This document shows positions 18,143-29,808 of a stretch of 64,000 nucleotides of DNA, piece by piece. Source of the stretch: Candidatus Daviesbacteria bacterium RIFCSPLOWO2_01_FULL_39_23 (GTDB lineage: Bacteria > Patescibacteriota > Microgenomatia > Daviesbacterales > UBA10151). Both the position numbers and the translations under genes were made by a program. Positions within the stretch are counted from its first letter, which is position 1; each line of letters opens with the position of its first letter. Under the pieces are notes generated by a model, which made no database searches, was not told the origin of the DNA, and saw only the letters and a program-made list of their open reading frames with translations. The stretch spans positions 30,130 to 94,129 of the forward strand of contig MFDN01000015.1 in the NCBI GenBank assembly GCA_001776935.1. Direction: 5' to 3'.

Positions 18143-19336
18143 TTAGTTTTCCAAAAGTTGTGCAGCATATTGTTCAAGTAATTTTTGTTTTTGGGGTGTA
18201 TATTTTTTACTTTCAAAATATTTTTTTAGTGCTTGCAAAGGGGTTAAGCTTTCTACCTCAATATCAAGTCTTTTCCTTTCAACTTTTTCAACATTTCTTG
18301 AGATTCCGGCTATAAAATTGGCACTGCTTAAAGATTTTTTAACCAAATCCATTTTTATTTCCTCTTCGCATTCTGCAGGAATATTTATGATGACCCGGAC
18401 GATCTTATCTTCTATTTTGTTTTTTTTGATCTGATCAAGAATGGTTTGGTTTGGGTCAGCATCCTTGGGATCCAAATTAATGCTGATAGTTAAAAATTGC
18501 CTGGCGTTGGTGGGTAGAAACTGGAATTGGCTTTTCCATCCAGTAGACCTCGCAGGTTTAATGCGTGCAACCTGCGAGGTCGGTAATATCTCTAATAAAC
18601 AAATTCCTTTTTCTTCTTTTTCTTCTCCAAAATCTATCCTTTGTGGGGAGCCGGAGTAAACAATCAAAGGAGTGTCGCCTGGTTTTGATAAAGTCTGATG
18701 CTTGTGAATATGTCCAAGCGCAACATAAGCCAATCTTTTATCCTGTATTAAAGGAAGGGGGATAGTTACCTCATTTGCAATAGCCATGCCTTTTTCGCTG
18801 CCAAATTCTGCTCCAACCACTTCTGCATGGGATAAGAGTATTGCAGGGGAATCAGGGCTGATTTTTTCATACAGCAGTTTTAATTTTTCTGCCACATCTT
18901 TGTAGTCATTTTTATGAAGCCAGGGTAAGGTCACTATTTGCAAAGCGCCTGATTTTGTTGGGACAGATAATAATTCCGGTTTTCTGGAGACCCAGACATT
19001 GTCAATTTCTAAGGCTGAGTAAATATCCAAAGTATTGGCTTTTCCTTCGGCATTCGGGGTATCATGATTACCCACTACTAAAATAACCGGAATCTTTTTG
19101 GCCATTTTGGCAATTCTTTCCCCAAAACCTCTTTGCTGGGTTGGGTTGGGGTCGCGGGTTTTATAGGCATCCCCGGCAAAGACTACCGCATCCACATTTT
19201 CTTTAAAGGCAGTATCTACGATAAAATCAAAGGTATTAAAAAAATCAAGCAGTCTGGTAGAAAGGCCGGTTTCAGGATCCAACTTGGCATAATTTTCCAT
19301 CCCAATATGCAGATCAGAAAAATGCAGTAGTTTCAT
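18143..19336 (-). CDS. sbcD: SbcD/Mre11-family nuclease (calcineurin-like phosphoesterase)
   Basis: MKLLHFSDLHIG, GDAYKTRDP and GNHD motifs. The ORF extends 8 codons further upstream (to 19360). Confidence 0.85.
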   Translation of the reverse strand: MKLLHFSDLHIGMENYAKLDPETGLSTRLLDFFNTFDFIVDTAFKENVDAVVFAGDAYKTRDPNPTQQRGFGERIAKMAKKIPVILVVGNHDTPNAEGKANTLDIYSALEIDNVWVSRKPELLSVPTKSGALQIVTLPWLHKNDYKDVAEKLKLLYEKISPDSPAILLSHAEVVGAEFGSEKGMAIANEVTIPLPLIQDKRLAYVALGHIHKHQTLSKPGDTPLIVYSGSPQRIDFGEEKEEKGICLLEILPTSQVARIKPARSTGWKSQFQFLPTNARQFLTISINLDPKDADPNQTILDQIKKNKIEDKIVRVIINIPAECEEEIKMDLVKKSLSSANFIAGISRNVEKVERKRLDIEVESLTPLQALKKYFESKKYTPQKQKLLEQYAAQLLEN

Positions 19337-19402
19337 GGTTGGATTATAATCAAGCAGCAAACATTTGACAAATGACCTATAAGATAATAGAATTCAAAAA
19401 TT

Positions 19403-20368
19403 GTGGAAAAAGTTTCAGGAATGGTTAAAAAATTTAAAGAGACTTTTGGAGATGCACCGGAACTTAAAAAACCTTGGACCAGAGGCAAATACTCTGTGCC
19501 GCTCAAGTTGAGAGATATCCACTATAGAGACTCTCTTCCATTCGCAAAGTTTGAGGGAATTAGCGGGAAAGAAGATGATGGAGTTTTGAAGGTCAGGGTT
19601 GACTATGCTGGTAGTTTGGATTTAAGAAGAGAGCAAGCTTTTATTAAGAGTGGTACCCAATTTACTCTGAATTATGTTGACATCAGGTTTAATACAGGTC
19701 CAGTGGACATTATTTATTCTGCAAAGTATGACCATCTTATTGAAAATTCCTATACAGACGAAAGAGCTTGGCCATATTTTTCGCGTGAGCTACTAATTCA
19801 ATTTACAGGAAGACGGGACATGCCGTTGGCTATGGCTGAATATTTTAGTAGCAACAGGAGGATTCAGTACGCACTATATATGACCTGCGGTGAATTTGGT
19901 GATTTACAGGCCTCTCTTGGGGCTCAAGCTGGGGAAAAAGATGACTCTGGACTGGGGTTTGCCAAAGTAGATATCGGTGCTCTTCCCGGTGCTCATATAC
20001 AAGAGTTAAGGAACAGCGCAGATAATATAAAGACTGAAACATCACCCAAGCCTATTCCTATAAATGGAGTTCCGATGAATATTGACGACTCTCCTTATAT
20101 ATACCGGGTTTTACATAGTCAAGACCACCAGGAGTGGGGACAGGGTAGGTTAGCGTTATCCAGACTGCATTTTGAAACAGGATCGGTGATGATGTTGTCG
20201 GTACCTGAGTGTGTAAATCAGCATGAATACATGAGTTATATGATAGGCGATCAATGGAATGATATTTTACACAGATATCCTGTGAGATTTGTAACAGTGG
20301 AGAGTGGGAAACCTCGACAATGGTTGCATACTTTTGGTAGAGACGATAAACTTTTAGAAGTTAGATAG
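19403..20368 (+). CDS. Hypothetical protein (321 aa), GC-richer than the surrounding sequence
   Basis: Clean ORF with no TM segments and no recognisable motifs; lies immediately upstream of the duplicated-pepP/TA cassette. Confidence 0.5.
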   Translation: MEKVSGMVKKFKETFGDAPELKKPWTRGKYSVPLKLRDIHYRDSLPFAKFEGISGKEDDGVLKVRVDYAGSLDLRREQAFIKSGTQFTLNYVDIRFNTGPVDIIYSAKYDHLIENSYTDERAWPYFSRELLIQFTGRRDMPLAMAEYFSSNRRIQYALYMTCGEFGDLQASLGAQAGEKDDSGLGFAKVDIGALPGAHIQELRNSADNIKTETSPKPIPINGVPMNIDDSPYIYRVLHSQDHQEWGQGRLALSRLHFETGSVMMLSVPECVNQHEYMSYMIGDQWNDILHRYPVRFVTVESGKPRQWLHTFGRDDKLLEVR

Positions 20369-20424
20369 CCTTCCCTTTGAGCGGAAAAATCTGAGAAATT
20401 AGTATTTTTGGTAGAATAGGGTTC

Positions 20425-20541
20425 ATGTTTAAGCAACGAATTCAGCAGGTTAGACAAAAACTTTCAAAACAAAAACTGGATGCAATTTGGATTTGTGATG
20501 TTTCCAATATTTGTTACCTGACCGGTTTTTCCACACCTTGA
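20425..20541 (+). pseudogene. Remnant 5' fragment (38 codons) of an Xaa-Pro aminopeptidase gene, a diverged duplicate of the start of the intact gene at 21355
   Basis: MFKQRIQQVRQKLSKQKLDAIWICDVSNI... matches the N-terminus of the 21355 gene (MFKQRIQQVKQKISKAKLDAIWICDVSNI...) at about 84% nt identity, then terminates. Upstream non-coding sequence is also duplicated. Confidence 0.75.
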
Positions 20542-20575
20542 TTTTTGTACAAATTTGTTCTAAAATGTACGTATT

Positions 20576-20878
20576 ATGACACAAGTAATGAAAGCCTCAG
20601 ATGTAAGGCAAAACTGGAGTAAACTGCTTAATAAAGTATACCGTAATCAAACCCGCCTGGTAGTGGAAAAAAGCGGAATTCCGGTCGCTGCCTTAATCTC
20701 AACAGAAGATTTAGACCGCTTGACAAAATTAGAAGAGCTTAGAGAAAGAAATTTTTCTGTTCTTGATGAAATCGGTGAGAAATTCAAAAATGTGCCTGCG
20801 GAAGAGATTGAGCAAGAGGTTAACAAAGTCTTAGTTAAGATTCGGGCACAAAATCGTAGAAAATCTCCTGTTGCCTAA
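20576..20878 (+). CDS. Phd/YefM-family antitoxin
   Basis: Phd/YefM-like N-terminal segment (...RQNWSKLLNKVYRNQTRLVVEKSGIPVAALISTEDLDRL...); 100 aa; directly precedes the PIN gene. Confidence 0.75.
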   Translation: MTQVMKASDVRQNWSKLLNKVYRNQTRLVVEKSGIPVAALISTEDLDRLTKLEELRERNFSVLDEIGEKFKNVPAEEIEQEVNKVLVKIRAQNRRKSPVA

Positions 20879-20884
20879 ATCAGT

Positions 20885-21322
20885 ATGATATCCGCAGTCC
20901 TGGATGCCAATATAATTACCTCTGGTATTTTAGGATACCGCAATCCTGTCAGTATTCCAGGAGCAATACTTAGATTATGGCGGCAAGGTACTTTTATTCT
21001 TGCAACATCTAAACATATTCGTGATGAGGTAAAAGTAGCACTGAGCAAATCATATTTTAAAAAACATTTGACTATCCAGGAAATATCCCGCATACAAGCA
21101 CTTCTTCAATTCCAGGCAAAACAGACAGTTATTACTGAGGATGTACATGAAACTGCTACTCACTTTGAAGATGATCTGGTTCTTGCTGTGGTTGTCAGCG
21201 CAAAAGCCGACTATTTAGTAACCGGCGATGGTCCGCTACTTCGAAAAGTCGGTAACTCTTATCAGGGAGTCAAATTGGTCAATCCGAATGATTTTCTACA
21301 AATTCTTAAGCAGCAGAGTTAG
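20885..21322 (+). CDS. PIN-domain toxin (putative TA-system toxin, PIN family, TIGR00305-like)
   Basis: MISAVLDANIITSGIL start, conserved acidic residues and C-terminal ADYLVTGDGPLL, typical of this PIN subfamily. Confidence 0.75.
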   Translation: MISAVLDANIITSGILGYRNPVSIPGAILRLWRQGTFILATSKHIRDEVKVALSKSYFKKHLTIQEISRIQALLQFQAKQTVITEDVHETATHFEDDLVLAVVVSAKADYLVTGDGPLLRKVGNSYQGVKLVNPNDFLQILKQQS

Positions 21323-21354
21323 TTTGCTGTCTGTTTTTTGATAGAATTGATTTC

Positions 21355-22446
21355 ATGTTTAAGCAACGGATTCAACAGGTTAAACAAAAAATTTCGAAAG
21401 CAAAACTAGATGCGATTTGGATTTGTGATGTTTCCAATATTACCTACCTTACTGGTTTTTCCAATTTTTCAAAAGAAGAAAGAGAGGCATATTTGCTAAT
21501 CGGTAAGGATTTTCAATTTATTATTACAGATGCCAGGTATTCTGAGGCAGTAAGAAAAGAAATCCCTCATTTAAAACTTTTTGAAAGGTCTCATCAAAAC
21601 CCAACTGAAAAATTATTTGAAAGCTTAAAAAATAAAATAAAAGTTTTAGGGATTGAAGAAGATGAGTTAACAGTTTTAGAATATAAATCGTTAAAAAAGC
21701 ATTTTAAAAAAACAAAACATTTTAATTTAAAAACCAACCGTTTGATAAAAACTCCGGAAGAAATTAAAAAAATAGAAAAAGCATGCAAATTAGGTGATTT
21801 GGCATTTAAATATATTTTGAAAAAAATAAGGACAGGTATTTCGGAAAAGGAGCTTGCTTATGAATTGGAGAAATTCATAAAAGAAAATGGGGCAGAACTT
21901 TCATTTCCTTCAATTGTAGCTTTTGGTAAAAATTCTTCCGTTCCCCATCACCAAACAGGCAATACTAAACTGGAAGAAAAGCATGGACAGTTTGTTCTAT
22001 TAGACTTCGGAGTCAAGTTAGAAAATTATTGTTCAGATATGACCAGGACTGTTTTTTTTGGCAAACCTTCTAAAGAACAACAAAAGATTTATGAAACAGT
22101 TTTATCAGCCCAACAAAAAGCTGTTGACTATATAAACAAAACTTTAAAATCAGGTAAAAAAATTTGGGCTTCCAAAGTTGATATAGCAGCCCGGGATTAT
22201 ATTATTTCAAAGGGTTTTCCAACGATTCCCCACTCGCTTGGTCATGGCATAGGGTTGGAGGTACACGAGCATCCGTCGTTATCACCTAAAAGCAAAGAAG
22301 ATTTAAAAAGCGGAATGGTTTTTTCCATAGAGCCGGGGATTTATATACCAAACTTAGGCGGGGTCCGAATTGAAGATTTATTTGTTTTGGAAAATCAGCA
22401 ACTTCGGGCATTGACCGGCTCCTCAAAAGCGCTGATTATTATATAA
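21355..22446 (+). CDS. Xaa-Pro aminopeptidase (M24B family)
   Basis: M24 metal-ligand motifs: LDFG...DMTRT, HSLGHGIGLEVHE, and FSIEPG. Confidence 0.85.
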   Translation: MFKQRIQQVKQKISKAKLDAIWICDVSNITYLTGFSNFSKEEREAYLLIGKDFQFIITDARYSEAVRKEIPHLKLFERSHQNPTEKLFESLKNKIKVLGIEEDELTVLEYKSLKKHFKKTKHFNLKTNRLIKTPEEIKKIEKACKLGDLAFKYILKKIRTGISEKELAYELEKFIKENGAELSFPSIVAFGKNSSVPHHQTGNTKLEEKHGQFVLLDFGVKLENYCSDMTRTVFFGKPSKEQQKIYETVLSAQQKAVDYINKTLKSGKKIWASKVDIAARDYIISKGFPTIPHSLGHGIGLEVHEHPSLSPKSKEDLKSGMVFSIEPGIYIPNLGGVRIEDLFVLENQQLRALTGSSKALIII

Positions 22447-22453
22447 TGAATTT

Positions 22454-23071
22454 ATGGGTAAATGGGACAAGTTGGCTGACAGGCAAACTATTGACGAAAC
22501 AATTGAAAGCTTAAAGAAAAATGGCCTGGAGGCAATGTTCGTAAATGATGGTAAAGAAGCTAAAGAAAAGGTTTTGTCATTGATTCCTGCCGGGTCTGAG
22601 GTGATGACCATGACTTCTGTCACTTTAGATACCATAGGTTTATCAGAGGAAATTAACAAAACAGGAGGCAGTTTTAAGCCGGTCAGGGATAAACTTTATT
22701 CGATGGATCGAAAAAGTGAGGCCCAGGAAATGAATAAACTGGGGGCAGCGCCGCAGTATGTTTTAGGAAGTATACATGCAGTCACTCAGGCAGGGGAAAT
22801 AATGGTTGCTTCCAATACTGGTTCTCAATTACCTGCTTATTCTTATGGAGCACTAAAGGTAATTTGGGTAGTTGGAGCGCAAAAAATTGTCAAAAATTTA
22901 GATGAGGGTTTTAAGCGTATTTATGAGCATAGTCTAATACTGGAAAGCGAAAGAGCCAAAAAAGCATACGGCGTACCCGGTTCATCTGTAAATAAAATAT
23001 TAATTATAAACAAAGAAGTGCAACCGGGAAGAATGACTATTATTTTGGTTAACGAAGTATTGGGTTTTTAG
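22454..23071 (+). CDS. LUD-domain protein (LutC/YkgG-like, DUF162)
   Basis: Overall similarity to the lactate-utilisation LUD domain fold; 205 aa. Confidence 0.55.
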   Translation: MGKWDKLADRQTIDETIESLKKNGLEAMFVNDGKEAKEKVLSLIPAGSEVMTMTSVTLDTIGLSEEINKTGGSFKPVRDKLYSMDRKSEAQEMNKLGAAPQYVLGSIHAVTQAGEIMVASNTGSQLPAYSYGALKVIWVVGAQKIVKNLDEGFKRIYEHSLILESERAKKAYGVPGSSVNKILIINKEVQPGRMTIILVNEVLGF

Positions 23072-26847: not shown

Positions 26848-29808
26848 TTAAGCATTTAACCAGTCATCATCATCTTTCGATATTTTATCAAGGTTTTCTT
26901 CGTCGCTGTAGCTGGCATTACTGATAATCAGTTCTTGTGGAATATCTGCCAAAAATCTGGATACTAAATTATTTGACCTGGTGCCAAAATATAACCTCTG
27001 TCTGGCGTAAGTTAAATATAGTTTCTCTTTAGCGCGGGTGATTCCGACATAGCAAAGTCTTCTTTCTTCCTCGAGTTCGCCAGTATCCAACATAGCGCGG
27101 GAGTGGGGGAATAAGCCTTCTTCCATGCCTACCATAAAAACAATCGGGAATTCCAGACCCTTAGCAGAGTGAAGAGTCATTAAAGTGACTGCGTCAGATT
27201 GCTGTTGACTGTTGGCTTTTCGCTTTCGGCCGGGAATATTGCCATTTTCAACCAGAGCAACATTTTCTAAAAATTCCACCAAATCAGGAAATTCTTCGGC
27301 TACAGACCGGAGCTCCTTAACGTTTTCTATACGCATTTTACCCTCTTCGGTGCCGTTATCAAGATATGCCAAATATCCTGTTTTGGTAAAAATTAAATCC
27401 AGTAAATCTAATGTTGTGTATTGATGAAGCTGCGTGGATATTTCTTCATAAAGTTCGGTAACTTTTACAAGCCTTCCTTTGCCTATTTTTTCAGCCCTTT
27501 TTAATGAAATCGAATCCTTAGGATTTTGCAATAAGCGCAGATATGCTAAAACGTCCTTTATTTCCTTTCTCTGGTAAAAGCTTACTCCGCCGACCAATTT
27601 ATATGGCATTCCGGCCTTTAAAAATTGTTCTTCTAGGGATCTTGATTGAGCATTGGTCCGGTAGAGAATGGCAAACTCAGACAGTTCTTTTATATCTTTG
27701 AGTTTGCTAATGGAGGATATGATAAAAAGAGCTTCTTCAACTTCATTTCTCACCTCAACTATTTCTATCTTTTCTCCGCCCTCTTTTTTGGTCCAAAGTT
27801 TTAAGACAGGATGGGATTTATTTTTGCAAATAATCGCATGGGCAGCGTCCAAAATATTTTGAGTGGAACGGTAATTTTGTTCAAGATTAAAAACCTTTAC
27901 CTGCGGATAATCTTTTTGAAAATTGACTATATTTCTAAAATCAGCTCCCCTGAAGGAATATATGGAATTATGTACAATGATTCCATTAGCAGAATAATTA
28001 TGCAGAGTATCTATATCCAGATCATAAACTTTTCCAACATAGTCCTCATGAGAAACTGAAATAACCTCATCAAGAATGATTCGATCTTTTTCTAAAATTC
28101 CAATTTCCATAGTTTCTCTAAGATGACTAATAGGGGTAAATAAAAACTTTTTATTATCAACAATGAAAGCAGAATGGTTAATAGTGAGTCCGCCGCCATC
28201 CAAAGCAATCTTTTCTGCTAGAGATAAAGCATTTTCATAACCCCAATGACAGGTTTCAATTCTCCATGTATCTCTATTGCCCGCTCTGGTAAAATGCCCC
28301 AGTTCATGAAGACTCTTCTGCAAGTTCTGGTTGGAAGTGTTAATTGAGACTCTGTGGCCACACCATGGACTTTTTAAAGTAGGCCGTTTATCGCTAAAAA
28401 GAGTGAAATGGACTAATTGTCTATCTGGAGCAATTTTACTTGCTACACCTTTAGGATGATGATGGGGATAGTCTTCAAACAGGTAGTAATCTTTGAAAAT
28501 TGTTTTTACCCGTTCTCTGGTATCTATAGAGTCAAAAAGTTTGTTAATTTGTTTTTGAGTAATAACCATATTACGGCCGCCGGTAGAGAAAACCATACTG
28601 GGGATTCCGTATTGAACTATAAACCACTGTTCCCAATAATTTGCTTCTGCTCTATCCTTGCAAACTTTTAAAATCCACATTTTATCTGCGCTCTCTTGAT
28701 TTGAACGCACCAATAAGCCAATTTGAGTTTTTCCTTTCTCTGGAGTTCTGAAACTTTTAGCAATTCCAATACGATAGCCTTTATCTTTTCGAAACATAAG
28801 GTATACATAGTAGCAATTTATTTTTAAGCTTAAACGGGCAAAGGTAATATGATTTGGGGTTGCTTTTAAAGTTTTACCGGATTTAGTTTTAATTGTGAAT
28901 AATTTACCTTGGAAATTAGAAATTCTTATTTTTTCAATCGGAACTTTGTGAATTCCTCCGCGACCAGCAGCAGCTATTACCAAATCGTTTCGTTTGAGGT
29001 CCTTAATAGATTTTAATCCAGTTGGAGTTGAAATTTTGGTATCAGGAGGGAGACATTGGCTGGCATCCCCTACAACACAAATATTTTGATGGCGTTTGGA
29101 TAAATATTTACTTATTAAATATTGGGCCGGATTGGTATCCTGGTATTCATCAATTAATATGTAGCGGAACTGGATCTGGTAGCGGGTTAAAACAGAGGGT
29201 TCGGTTTGAAAAAGCCGGATGGTTTTAAGAAGAAGGTCATCAAAATCCAAAGCCTGATTTTTCTCCAGGATTTTTTGATACTCAAGATAAATTTTAGCAA
29301 CAATTTCCTGGAAATATCCGCGGGCGTATTGAGGATATTCCAAAGAAGAAATCAGTTCGTTTTTAGCGCCGGAAATGGTGGAGCGGACAGAGTAGGGGGA
29401 AGTTTTTTGGGGGGAAATATTTAGATTACTCATGGCCTCTTTTACAGCATCCAAAGCATCTCCTTCATCATAAATTGCAAAACCGGGCGGCAGTCCCAGG
29501 ACTTTGCCGTCGCGGCGCAGTACCCTGGCACAAAAGCTATGGAACGTTCCCATAACCGGTTTGGCATTAAAATCCCCAAGCAGTTTCTTGATTCTTTCCA
29601 TCATTTCTCCGGCGGCTTTATTGGTGAATGTCAGGCACAGGATATTGTCAGGCGGAATACTCTTTTCAGATATTAAGTGAGCTACTTTATAAGTCAAGAC
29701 TCGTGTTTTGCCTGAGCCTGCTCCGGCCATAATCAGGGTTGGACCTTCAGTGGTCTGCACGGCTTTTTGTTGGTCTGGATTTAAATCATCTAGTAAAGAA
29801 GAGGGCAT
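26848..29808 (-). CDS. pcrA: UvrD/PcrA-family ATP-dependent DNA helicase interrupted by an intein
   Basis: Walker A AGAGSGKT. Motif III VGDxxQ is split from SIYSFRGA by a 363-aa insertion starting with Cys and ending ...VHN|S. Helicase motifs V/VI are present in the C-terminal extein. Confidence 0.85.
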   Translation of the reverse strand: MPSSLLDDLNPDQQKAVQTTEGPTLIMAGAGSGKTRVLTYKVAHLISEKSIPPDNILCLTFTNKAAGEMMERIKKLLGDFNAKPVMGTFHSFCARVLRRDGKVLGLPPGFAIYDEGDALDAVKEAMSNLNISPQKTSPYSVRSTISGAKNELISSLEYPQYARGYFQEIVAKIYLEYQKILEKNQALDFDDLLLKTIRLFQTEPSVLTRYQIQFRYILIDEYQDTNPAQYLISKYLSKRHQNICVVGDASQCLPPDTKISTPTGLKSIKDLKRNDLVIAAAGRGGIHKVPIEKIRISNFQGKLFTIKTKSGKTLKATPNHITFARLSLKINCYYVYLMFRKDKGYRIGIAKSFRTPEKGKTQIGLLVRSNQESADKMWILKVCKDRAEANYWEQWFIVQYGIPSMVFSTGGRNMVITQKQINKLFDSIDTRERVKTIFKDYYLFEDYPHHHPKGVASKIAPDRQLVHFTLFSDKRPTLKSPWCGHRVSINTSNQNLQKSLHELGHFTRAGNRDTWRIETCHWGYENALSLAEKIALDGGGLTINHSAFIVDNKKFLFTPISHLRETMEIGILEKDRIILDEVISVSHEDYVGKVYDLDIDTLHNYSANGIIVHNSIYSFRGADFRNIVNFQKDYPQVKVFNLEQNYRSTQNILDAAHAIICKNKSHPVLKLWTKKEGGEKIEIVEVRNEVEEALFIISSISKLKDIKELSEFAILYRTNAQSRSLEEQFLKAGMPYKLVGGVSFYQRKEIKDVLAYLRLLQNPKDSISLKRAEKIGKGRLVKVTELYEEISTQLHQYTTLDLLDLIFTKTGYLAYLDNGTEEGKMRIENVKELRSVAEEFPDLVEFLENVALVENGNIPGRKRKANSQQQSDAVTLMTLHSAKGLEFPIVFMVGMEEGLFPHSRAMLDTGELEEERRLCYVGITRAKEKLYLTYARQRLYFGTRSNNLVSRFLADIPQELIISNASYSDEENLDKISKDDDDWLNA
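27967..29055 (-). mobile_element. Intein (363 aa) inserted in helicase motif III of UvrD/PcrA
   Basis: N-terminal splicing block CLPPDTKISTP, C-terminal block ...GIIVHN followed by +1 Ser. The central region is large enough for an endonuclease domain, but no LAGLIDADG motif is seen. Confidence 0.75.

Follow-up and report, generated by a model that had tools for sequence, protein, structure and literature searches.

A 64,000-nucleotide (nt) stretch of contig MFDN01000015.1 from Candidatus Daviesbacteria bacterium RIFCSPLOWO2_01_FULL_39_23 (hereafter the window, to which all positions refer unless a locus is named) carries a type II toxin–antitoxin (TA) operon of the Phd/YefM–PIN_3 kind, placed between two copies of the start of an M24 aminopeptidase gene. 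The upstream copy (A) is truncated, the downstream copy (B) belongs to the intact gene, and between them lies the TA operon alone. Comparable duplications, each of a different local target, flank related operons at other loci in two phyla. Long target duplication is a recurrent, but not a universal, insertion mode of this TA family. We consider it very likely that the window operon entered without a recombinase, by insertion with a long duplication of its target. The window is a clean case, with both junctions defined, of a bare operon that entered together with a long duplication saving the neighbouring gene.

The repeat itself is unambiguous. A search of 19000-23000 against itself returned one long direct repeat, pairing 20405-20533 with 21335-21463 over 129 nt at 86% identity (18 of 129 positions differ) and with a spacing of 930. 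Its strength is far beyond chance (blastn E = 7e-41; z = 76 for the local-alignment score against 100 shuffles), and the 64-kb window holds just these two copies and no third. In a gapped MAFFT alignment the repeat extends on the left to a common TTAGT at about 20398/21322, and its right end falls at 20534/21464. A 10-nt indel, TTGCTGTCTG, is found in copy B only and brings the repeat to about 145 nt. The longest run of identity between the copies is 27 nt, which by hand estimate has a chance of about 1 in 4 at 14% divergence. A first-pass annotation of the window, made from the letters alone, had reported a diverged duplication bracketing exactly the Phd/YefM and PIN genes, and these figures confirm it. 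The imperfect repeat that it described is real; its extent and identity need correction, as the homology covers 36 codons and not 38, and identity over the ungapped core is 86% and not about 84%.

The features at the locus are the following.

20398 to 20534, plus strand: copy A of the duplicated target, with extended -10 box TGGTAGAAT at 20409-20417, ATG at 20425 and M24 codons 1-36
20425 to 20541, plus strand: stub open reading frame (ORF) of 38 codons (36 of M24, then Thr-Pro), with its TGA at 20539-20541 inside the -35 hexamer of the TA promoter
20537 to 21322, plus strand: inserted cassette of 786 bp, a bare type II TA operon from the -35 hexamer through the toxin stop codon
20538 to 20570, plus strand: cassette promoter of sigma-70 type (TTGATT at 20538-20543, 17 nt, TAAAAT at 20561-20566, from a promoter scan) and putative operator
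20576 to 20878, plus strand: Phd/YefM antitoxin, 100 aa (PF02604, E = 8e-9; TIGR01552, E = 9e-9)
20885 to 21322, plus strand: PIN_3 toxin, 145 aa (PF13470, E = 4.5e-16; TIGR00305, E = 8.5e-12)
21310 to 21339, plus strand: putative terminator-like hairpin with T-run, spanning the toxin stop codon and the ten nucleotides absent from copy A
21322 to 21464, plus strand: copy B of the duplicated target, with extended -10 box TGATAGAAT at 21339-21347, ATG at 21355 and codons 1-36 of the intact M24 gene
21355 to 22446, plus strand: intact M24 gene (Xaa-Pro aminopeptidase / PepQ-like), 363 aa, with Creatinase_N and Peptidase_M24 domains
19403 to 20368, plus strand: hypothetical gene of 321 aa, ancestral left neighbour of M24, outside the insert

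The boundaries of the insert are set by its relatives. Nucleotide similarity to seven related loci (L013, L014, L015, L017, L019, L021 and L024) starts at 20537-20538 and ends at 21306-21322. In an alignment of six sequences, conservation begins abruptly at the -35 hexamer, with the consensus TTGACTTTTGTACTAAnTTGTACTAAnATGTAC followed by ATG, while everything upstream differs; beyond the toxin stop codon the relatives show no conservation. Because family similarity begins at the -35 hexamer and has ended by the stop codon, the insert is the bare 786-bp operon. Copy A and the cassette are parted by a filler of just 2-3 nt, and 3-13 nt separate the toxin stop codon from copy B. The cassette ends carry no terminal inverted repeat.

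Within these limits the operon has an orthodox organization. The antitoxin gene comes first and the toxin gene second, in the same orientation and 6 nt apart, and no other genes lie between copies A and B. The antitoxin scores 35.6 bits against PF02604 (cut-off 29.8) and 34.6 bits against TIGR01552 (cut-off 20.8); the toxin scores 60.1 bits against PF13470 (cut-off 27). Across 35 homologues the acidic toxin residues D7, E48 and D96/D97 are invariant and D115 is nearly so. Gene layout, Phd/YefM match and a PIN domain with its acidic residues together identify the pair, as judged from sequence, as a type II TA system. GTAC/GTTC/GTAC repeats at 20547-20550, 20557-20560 and 20567-20570 overlap the promoter, are kept with it in six relatives, and would form a putative antitoxin operator.

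The two copies of the target have met different fates. In copy A the stub still matches Pfam Creatinase_N (E = 2e-8), and it sits in the native M24 position just 3' of the hypothetical gene, as M24 itself does in L178. The possibility left by the first-pass annotation, that its 38 codons might belong to a longer gene, falls away, as the ORF list holds no longer ORF in that frame. Downstream, the intact M24 protein matches hundreds of 363-aa homologues over their full length. The ATG lies 7 nt beyond the extended -10 box in both copies. Through the duplication M24 stays whole, under what would be a private promoter, that of copy B, and copy A is left as a dead 38-codon stub. For annotation purposes, it explains an aminopeptidase pseudo-start of 38 codons and a second copy of the promoter. 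The hairpin (fold -12.3 kcal/mol, z = -2.4; also found by a terminator scan) joins the 10 extra nt of copy B to the closing bases of the toxin gene, and it would shield the M24 promoter from the TA operon. The promoter of copy A may drive the stub and could read on into the TA operon, as no terminator is predicted between them.

A feature of the M24 promoter is shared more widely. The start codon follows a TGnTAnAAT-type extended -10 box by 6-7 nt in both window copies and in L005, L006, L008 and L178, and the upstream region in these Daviesbacteria has no space for a Shine-Dalgarno sequence. This short distance and the lack of space suggest a leaderless M24 mRNA.

That the TA pair was inserted follows from empty sites in related genomes. 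The first-pass annotation had proposed that in some relative sbcD and the hypothetical gene would lie directly next to the aminopeptidase, and locus L178 has this arrangement. Its sbcD, of which 37 N-terminal residues are present, is 95% identical; next comes a 51% identical homologue of the hypothetical gene, followed by 41 nt containing GGTATAAT and by M24, and the locus lacks both a TA pair and an M24 fragment. In L006/L007 and L008/L009 (M24 about 70% identity) sbcD adjoins M24 at 43-68 nt and the flanking gene order is conserved. Because L178, L006, L008 and L009 hold empty sites, the TA pair is an insertion, as had been claimed. These relatives are distant (M24 58-70% identity), and the match is one of gene order and coding sequence, the non-coding part being unalignable. 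On that basis the TA pair together with the duplication is, by comparison of sequences, a later addition to an arrangement of sbcD, the hypothetical gene and M24.

The host population belongs to a groundwater metagenome: its exact proteins occur on contigs of PRJNA268031 and in the NCBI record ACD_38C00086, and the named organisms nearest to it are Candidatus Daviesbacteria. Over 19000-23000, three independent assemblies made from different samples match the window at 100% identity, and because they agree over these 4 kb the structure is real and an assembly artefact is excluded. The 18 differences in 129 repeat positions also exclude collapsed or chimeric reads. It is true that every contig bearing the exact M24, PIN or hypothetical protein shows the same arrangement (24 contigs examined per protein), and none of these contigs holds an empty site, as an artefact or an ancestral fixed structure without any insertion would predict. 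Given the independent assemblies and the relatives that lack the insertion, we regard the chance of either as negligible.

Flanking duplications at related loci

A flank test of the wider family asked how often such repeats occur. Direct repeats were sought within 260 nt on either side of each fetched TA locus, and called strong when their score was reached by no shuffle. Of 75 homologous TA loci, 10 proved to have strong flanking direct repeats; for pseudo-cassettes positioned at other points of these loci the figure was 9 of 1051. The enrichment stays clear when the window is left out (odds ratio 16, Fisher p = 4e-7). Duplications of 64-157 nt of differing local targets are present at 8 or more independent loci from two phyla, Patescibacteria and Chloroflexota. 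Between the repeat copies at those loci lies the TA operon alone, 801-1451 bp, with an intact gene on one side. The duplicated targets are as follows, each with the size of its repeat and the percentage of identical positions.

L052: 3' end of an aspartate-semialdehyde dehydrogenase gene, 113 nt, 86%
L053: 3' end of a cold-shock protein gene, 157 nt, 98.7%
L055: 3' end of a TPR gene, 64 nt, 81%
L031 and L032 (one locus in two Chloroflexota, one of them a complete chromosome): gap between convergent HAD and BrnA genes, 105 nt, 95%, and 107 nt, 74%, respectively
L028: PNPOx-like gene, 134 nt, 100%, to be read with caution as the downstream copy is at the contig end
L051: non-coding stretch, 73 nt, 98.6%
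L103 and L105: last 19 nt of tRNA-Leu plus 53 nt downstream, 72 nt, 79-85%

Cases with short repeats are kept apart from these. At L101 the flanks share 33 nt with 6-nt inverted ends (312-344 and 1135-1167), and at L083 they share a 29-nt perfect palindrome (405-433 and 1230-1258). The L083 repeat was rejected as a target duplication and not counted, as this palindrome is probably a dispersed hairpin element.

A further regularity was noted in three Chloroflexota. In L052 (1099-1107), L053 (5521) and L055 (5557-5560) the duplicated target has its outer edge within 0-6 nt of the convergent neighbour's stop codon. The precision with which the TA insert abuts a gene end in these loci is unexplained by the models considered.

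The TA relatives closest to the window pair share 83-86% of toxin residues and about 76% of nucleotides with it. Their neighbours are an asparaginase-like gene on one side and obg on the other, with no M24 fragments beside them, and one of these obg-adjacent relatives was recovered from the metagenome that also yielded the window organism. In two of them the toxin gene overlaps the convergent 3' end of obg by 47-57 nt, which is unusually long (L013, 2411-2467; L014, 910-957).

These relatives bear on the idea, put forward in the first-pass annotation, that the 5' end of M24 served as the attachment site of a mobile element, with a replacement gene start supplied by the element. On this view an integrase would have acted in trans or have since been lost. 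The outcome does resemble attL and attR sites with a replacement gene end, and L103/L105 duplicate the end of a tRNA-Leu gene (19 nt, plus 53 nt downstream), a classic integrase target. However, the insert is the TA operon alone, and its 786 bp leave no room for a recombinase. As had been claimed, none is nearby: genes up to about 6 kb away in both directions have no integrase or transposase domains. The same cassette family occupies unrelated loci with differing targets of 64-157 nt, its closest members being next to obg; the expected association with aminopeptidase 5' fragments in other genomes was seen at none of 170 loci. There is no identical core beyond the 27-nt run, and viral carriage receives no support, as no relative of the TA pair occurs among 2.9 million viral contigs. 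We regard site-specific integration at M24 as very unlikely.

Two other kinds of mobile unit were considered and rejected. An insertion sequence, transposon or miniature inverted-repeat transposable element fits neither the lack of terminal inverted repeats nor duplications of 64-157 nt that vary between loci. An integron gene cassette, which would bring an attC site at its 3' end and depend on an intI/attI platform, is likewise unsuitable: only 12 nt separate the stop codon from copy B, nothing is conserved there, and the operon brings a promoter with it and has no integrase close by.

Origin and persistence of the duplication

All evidence for the origin of the duplication is comparative. 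The explanation that we regard as best overall, and as somewhat probable, combines recombinase-free insertion, one homologous and one illegitimate junction, and retention of the product by addiction. For the junctions taken as a sub-mechanism, with a diverged donor, we put the chances slightly under even.

In this scheme the incoming DNA would derive from a related lineage carrying the TA pair directly upstream of M24. It would recombine homologously inside M24, and its other end would join illegitimately at codon 36 of the recipient M24, by homology-facilitated illegitimate recombination or gene-conversion-like repair. Copy A would then be the native promoter and 36 codons, and copy B, with an unspecified length of downstream M24, would be imported. 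An equivalent two-step route would be a disruptive insertion subsequently repaired by incoming intact DNA. The TTAGT common to the toxin end and to the target upstream of copy A may be junction microhomology.

The divergence between the copies speaks to this scheme. In the coding part they differ by 8 synonymous changes over 22.2 sites and 6 non-synonymous changes over 85.8 sites (dS 0.49, dN 0.073, omega 0.15). All four amino-acid variants of copy A are found in functional homologues, for example Cys30 in the closest relative. Manual polarization against L005, where it was possible, assigns 6-7 derived changes to B and 3 to A. Omega, the homologue variants, the polarization and TTAGT together lean to two alleles that diverged as working genes, as in this scheme or in a single crossover with a circle, and a foreign origin of one copy is plausible on sequence grounds. 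The mostly synonymous differences would be explained if copy B was imported from a related lineage, as proposed. A sliding comparison of M24 identity with L005 revealed no recombination breakpoint.

Direct repeats of such length normally promote deletion of the intervening DNA, and addiction offers a reason for their survival. Deletion between the repeats would lose the antitoxin gene and would lead to post-segregational killing or arrest, if the toxin is active. Addiction of this kind would preserve repeat-flanked insertions, which would explain the enrichment of long flanking duplications around the TA family. Such retention would need no special insertion enzyme.

Several observations weigh against this explanation. 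About 85% of the TA-family loci have no flanking repeat. Omega of at least 0.5 is expected if copy A drifted neutrally, yet with 14 differences the observed split is borderline (binomial p = 0.065). A and B are equidistant from L005, L006, L008 and L178. No sampled relative exceeds 79% M24 identity, and at the nucleotide level no empty site, donor or recipient allele was found. The cassette's left end lies 0-14 nt from the -35 hexamer in four loci (0-3 nt in the window; also L052, L055 and L101), and a break so near the hexamer is a coincidence for which random breakage does not account. Omega in L052 and L055 (0.51-0.66) fits divergence in place, and the 95-100% identical repeats of several loci need no diverged donor.

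Much of this evidence would suit a duplication made in place. Widely staggered breaks, or replication that switched template to the TA operon and back about 130 nt upstream, would give copies that were identical at first, after which B would be held by purifying selection and A would drift. The near-identical repeats at L053 (98.7%), L028 (100%), L051 (98.6%) and L031 (95%) support it, as does the contrast between the orthologous L031 and L032 (95% against 74%), which is expected for decay with time. An omega of 0.51-0.66 in L052 and L055 looks as if one copy were neutral, the cassette ends are tight in several loci, and A and B in the window are equally far from the outgroups. In the window, however, omega is 0.15 where at least 0.5 is expected (though with p = 0.065), and the supposedly neutral copy A has fewer derived changes than B (3 against 6-7). 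Copy A also retains its extended -10 box, ATG and open frame at dS of about 0.5. Moreover, we know of no bacterial enzyme established to cut variable staggers of 60-160 nt. We regard duplication in place as possible, if rather unlikely.

A Campbell-type event, a form of the homologous recombination named in the first-pass annotation, has also been weighed. A circle of about 930 bp, made of the TA operon and one copy of the M24 promoter and 5' end, would arise in another cell by recombination between the repeats there and enter through one homologous crossover near the start of M24. The spacing of the repeats equals a single 930-bp unit exactly, and both copies would then be chimeric, consistent with the equal outgroup distances and the synonymous-biased differences. 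Repeat-mediated amplification of flanked units has been documented for restriction-modification systems (PMC2853133). Against this, the event presupposes an earlier genome with the same flanked structure, which leaves the origin unexplained. A stretch of 130 nt at 86% identity is, besides, a poor substrate for RecA-type recombination. JGI metagenome contigs were scanned for the copy A promoter leading into intact M24, the mark of an excised, ancestral or empty allele; there were 0 matches, in a collection that seems to be without the host population (best PIN match 72%). This route seems to us improbable.

A bolder proposal is that the Phd/YefM–PIN_3 operon, and perhaps type II TA operons generally, are minimal self-propagating cassettes, running from -35 hexamer to stop codon and regularly creating long target duplications. 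This is a long shot in our estimation. By one route the operator-bound antitoxin–toxin complex would promote breaks or template switching at the cassette boundary; the PIN superfamily also includes structure-specific DNA nucleases. By another, addiction would selectively preserve duplication-flanked insertions that are otherwise deleted. If true, it would provide a general recombinase-free route of entry and persistence for orphan TA islets, including those in the reduced genomes of Patescibacteria. Quite apart from this proposal, the footprint shared by the window and its relatives makes two ideas testable: that host illegitimate and homologous recombination installs modules, and that post-segregational killing guards repeat-flanked insertions from deletion.

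The surrounding locus

The insert lies in a changeable interval of a conserved neighbourhood. On the minus strand are sbcC and sbcD, followed on the plus strand by the hypothetical gene, the M24 stub, antitoxin, toxin, M24 and a LUD-domain gene; beyond the latter come a methyltransferase-like gene, FemAB, SurA-like and UvrD genes. The closest M24 homologue outside the host population is 79% identical. It belongs to L005, the closest relative of the locus (sbcD 94%), in which the gap between sbcD and M24 holds entirely different cargo at 395-2349: a 210-aa gene, a DUF433/DUF5615 pair and a DUF805 gene. The DUF433 and DUF5615 genes are a second kind of putative TA pair in this position. The 210-aa gene showed no relationship to the hypothetical gene of the window.

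The sbcD-proximal promoter, TTGACAAATGACCTATA...ATAATAGAAT, is common to L005 and the window, and similarity ends right after the -10 box, which implies that different cargo was placed under the same strong promoter. By these sequence comparisons, the gap between sbcD and M24 is a variable spot where small accessory genes have repeatedly landed. Two divergent, near-consensus promoters overlap in the stretch from sbcD to the hypothetical gene (19343-19393): the plus strand carries TTGACA-17-TAGAAT and the minus strand TTGTCA-17-TATAAT, both with 11/12 matches. The plus-strand promoter recurs nearly base for base in L005, there ahead of the unrelated 210-aa gene.

The hypothetical protein is itself rare. 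An exhaustive search of 1.84 billion cluster representatives found 12 relatives, the best at 51% identity, and this best relative occupies the same position between sbcD and M24 (L178). It had no match in Pfam, NCBIfam, PADLOC or PHROGs, and a word-based search returned only the protein itself.

Searches of the locus for other elements were negative. The 64-kb window contains no tRNA genes, 18000-24000 matches no Rfam family, and PADLOC and PHROGs searches gave nothing informative at the locus.

Two side observations concern the contig and its further genes. The independent assemblies L011 and L012, from different samples, start at nearly the same point, inside sbcD at window position 19101-19104 or so, about 300 nt upstream of the hypothetical gene; strain heterogeneity or an upstream repeat may cause the shared break. 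The UvrD-type helicase (26848-29808, minus strand, 986 aa) matches an intein-splicing domain. Its orthologues in L006 and L008 are shorter, at 613-625 aa, and have no such match, and for this reason an intein appears, by comparison of sequences, to have entered the helicase gene of the host lineage.

Comparison with known systems

As a module, the window operon is ordinary. It resembles VapBC-like modules in having the antitoxin gene first, small genes, a PIN toxin with acidic residues and a promoter overlapping repeats, as would be expected for autoregulation, and nothing about it is unusual. The surroundings recall phage 21 and e14 at icd in E. coli, which are integrase-mediated, many kb long and bring a diverged replacement 3' end with which the gene stays functional. 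A diverged gene-end duplicate flanks the window insert too, and the gene is kept functional. The window insert differs in being 786 bp without an integrase, in duplicating a 5' end with its promoter, and in a site that is not conserved among relatives.

The PabI locus of H. pylori ELS37 shows the same succession of partial gene copy, insert and complete gene copy. There a 1577-bp duplication sandwiches an inserted element, attributed to incoming DNA with a homologous right and a non-homologous left junction (PMC4615327). Unlike the window, this is a single case concerning an integrative conjugative element of about 50 kb, with no tie to a TA module.

Small TA insertions without mobility genes have been described recently as islets in Photorhabdus (2026). 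These are type II operons that form strain-variable, tiny insertions between conserved genes, with no transposase or integrase (PMC13617665). Homologous recombination in the flanking core genes was proposed, and one 24-bp palindrome, which resembles Tn3 res, stands on both sides and once at the empty site (PMC13617665). The short repeats of L083 and L101 recall this palindrome type. Unlike in the window, long target-gene duplications were not reported. The Photorhabdus authors call it unclear how chromosomal TA operons without mobility genes integrate and persist (PMC13617665).

The closest parallel is provided by restriction-modification systems. These insert at varied chromosomal sites with target duplications of tens to hundreds of bp, a pattern named insertion with long target duplication; they have no mobility genes and are matched by empty sites in relatives (PMC2853133; PMC3874152), and flanking repeats are significantly commoner around them than around other genes (PMC2853133). 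Post-segregational killing by restriction-modification systems was shown experimentally to select rearranged genomes, and its authors suggested an extension to TA systems (PMC3031569). A review draws the parallel between both kinds of system, but gives long duplication for restriction-modification only (PMC3874152). Long target duplications around type II TA systems are not described in the full-text literature searched, a provisional result as subscription papers were thinly covered.

Furuta et al. (2010) recognized long duplications by a complete module of less than 20 kb, no other mobile-element genes, a duplication of more than 30 bp, an empty site and a unique target (PMC2853133). The window locus has each of these: a 786-bp TA operon alone, a duplication of 129-145 nt, empty sites in L178, L006, L008 and L009, and just two copies of the target in 64 kb. 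Like the restriction-modification cases, it is an addiction-type module without a mobility gene, with varied sites in its family, direct duplications of variable length, an empty site and statistical enrichment. It differs in identity, its repeats being 86% identical where most published restriction-modification cases have 93-100%, and in hosts, the duplications of the TA family being found in Patescibacteria and Chloroflexota. For restriction-modification systems the mechanism was left open, with breakage by the restriction enzyme suggested and repeat-mediated amplification shown (PMC2853133). The module here is a Phd/YefM–PIN_3 TA pair, and for this reason breakage of DNA by a restriction enzyme is not obviously applicable. 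What appears to be new is that a long target duplication of the kind known for restriction-modification systems surrounds a type II TA operon and recurs in its family.

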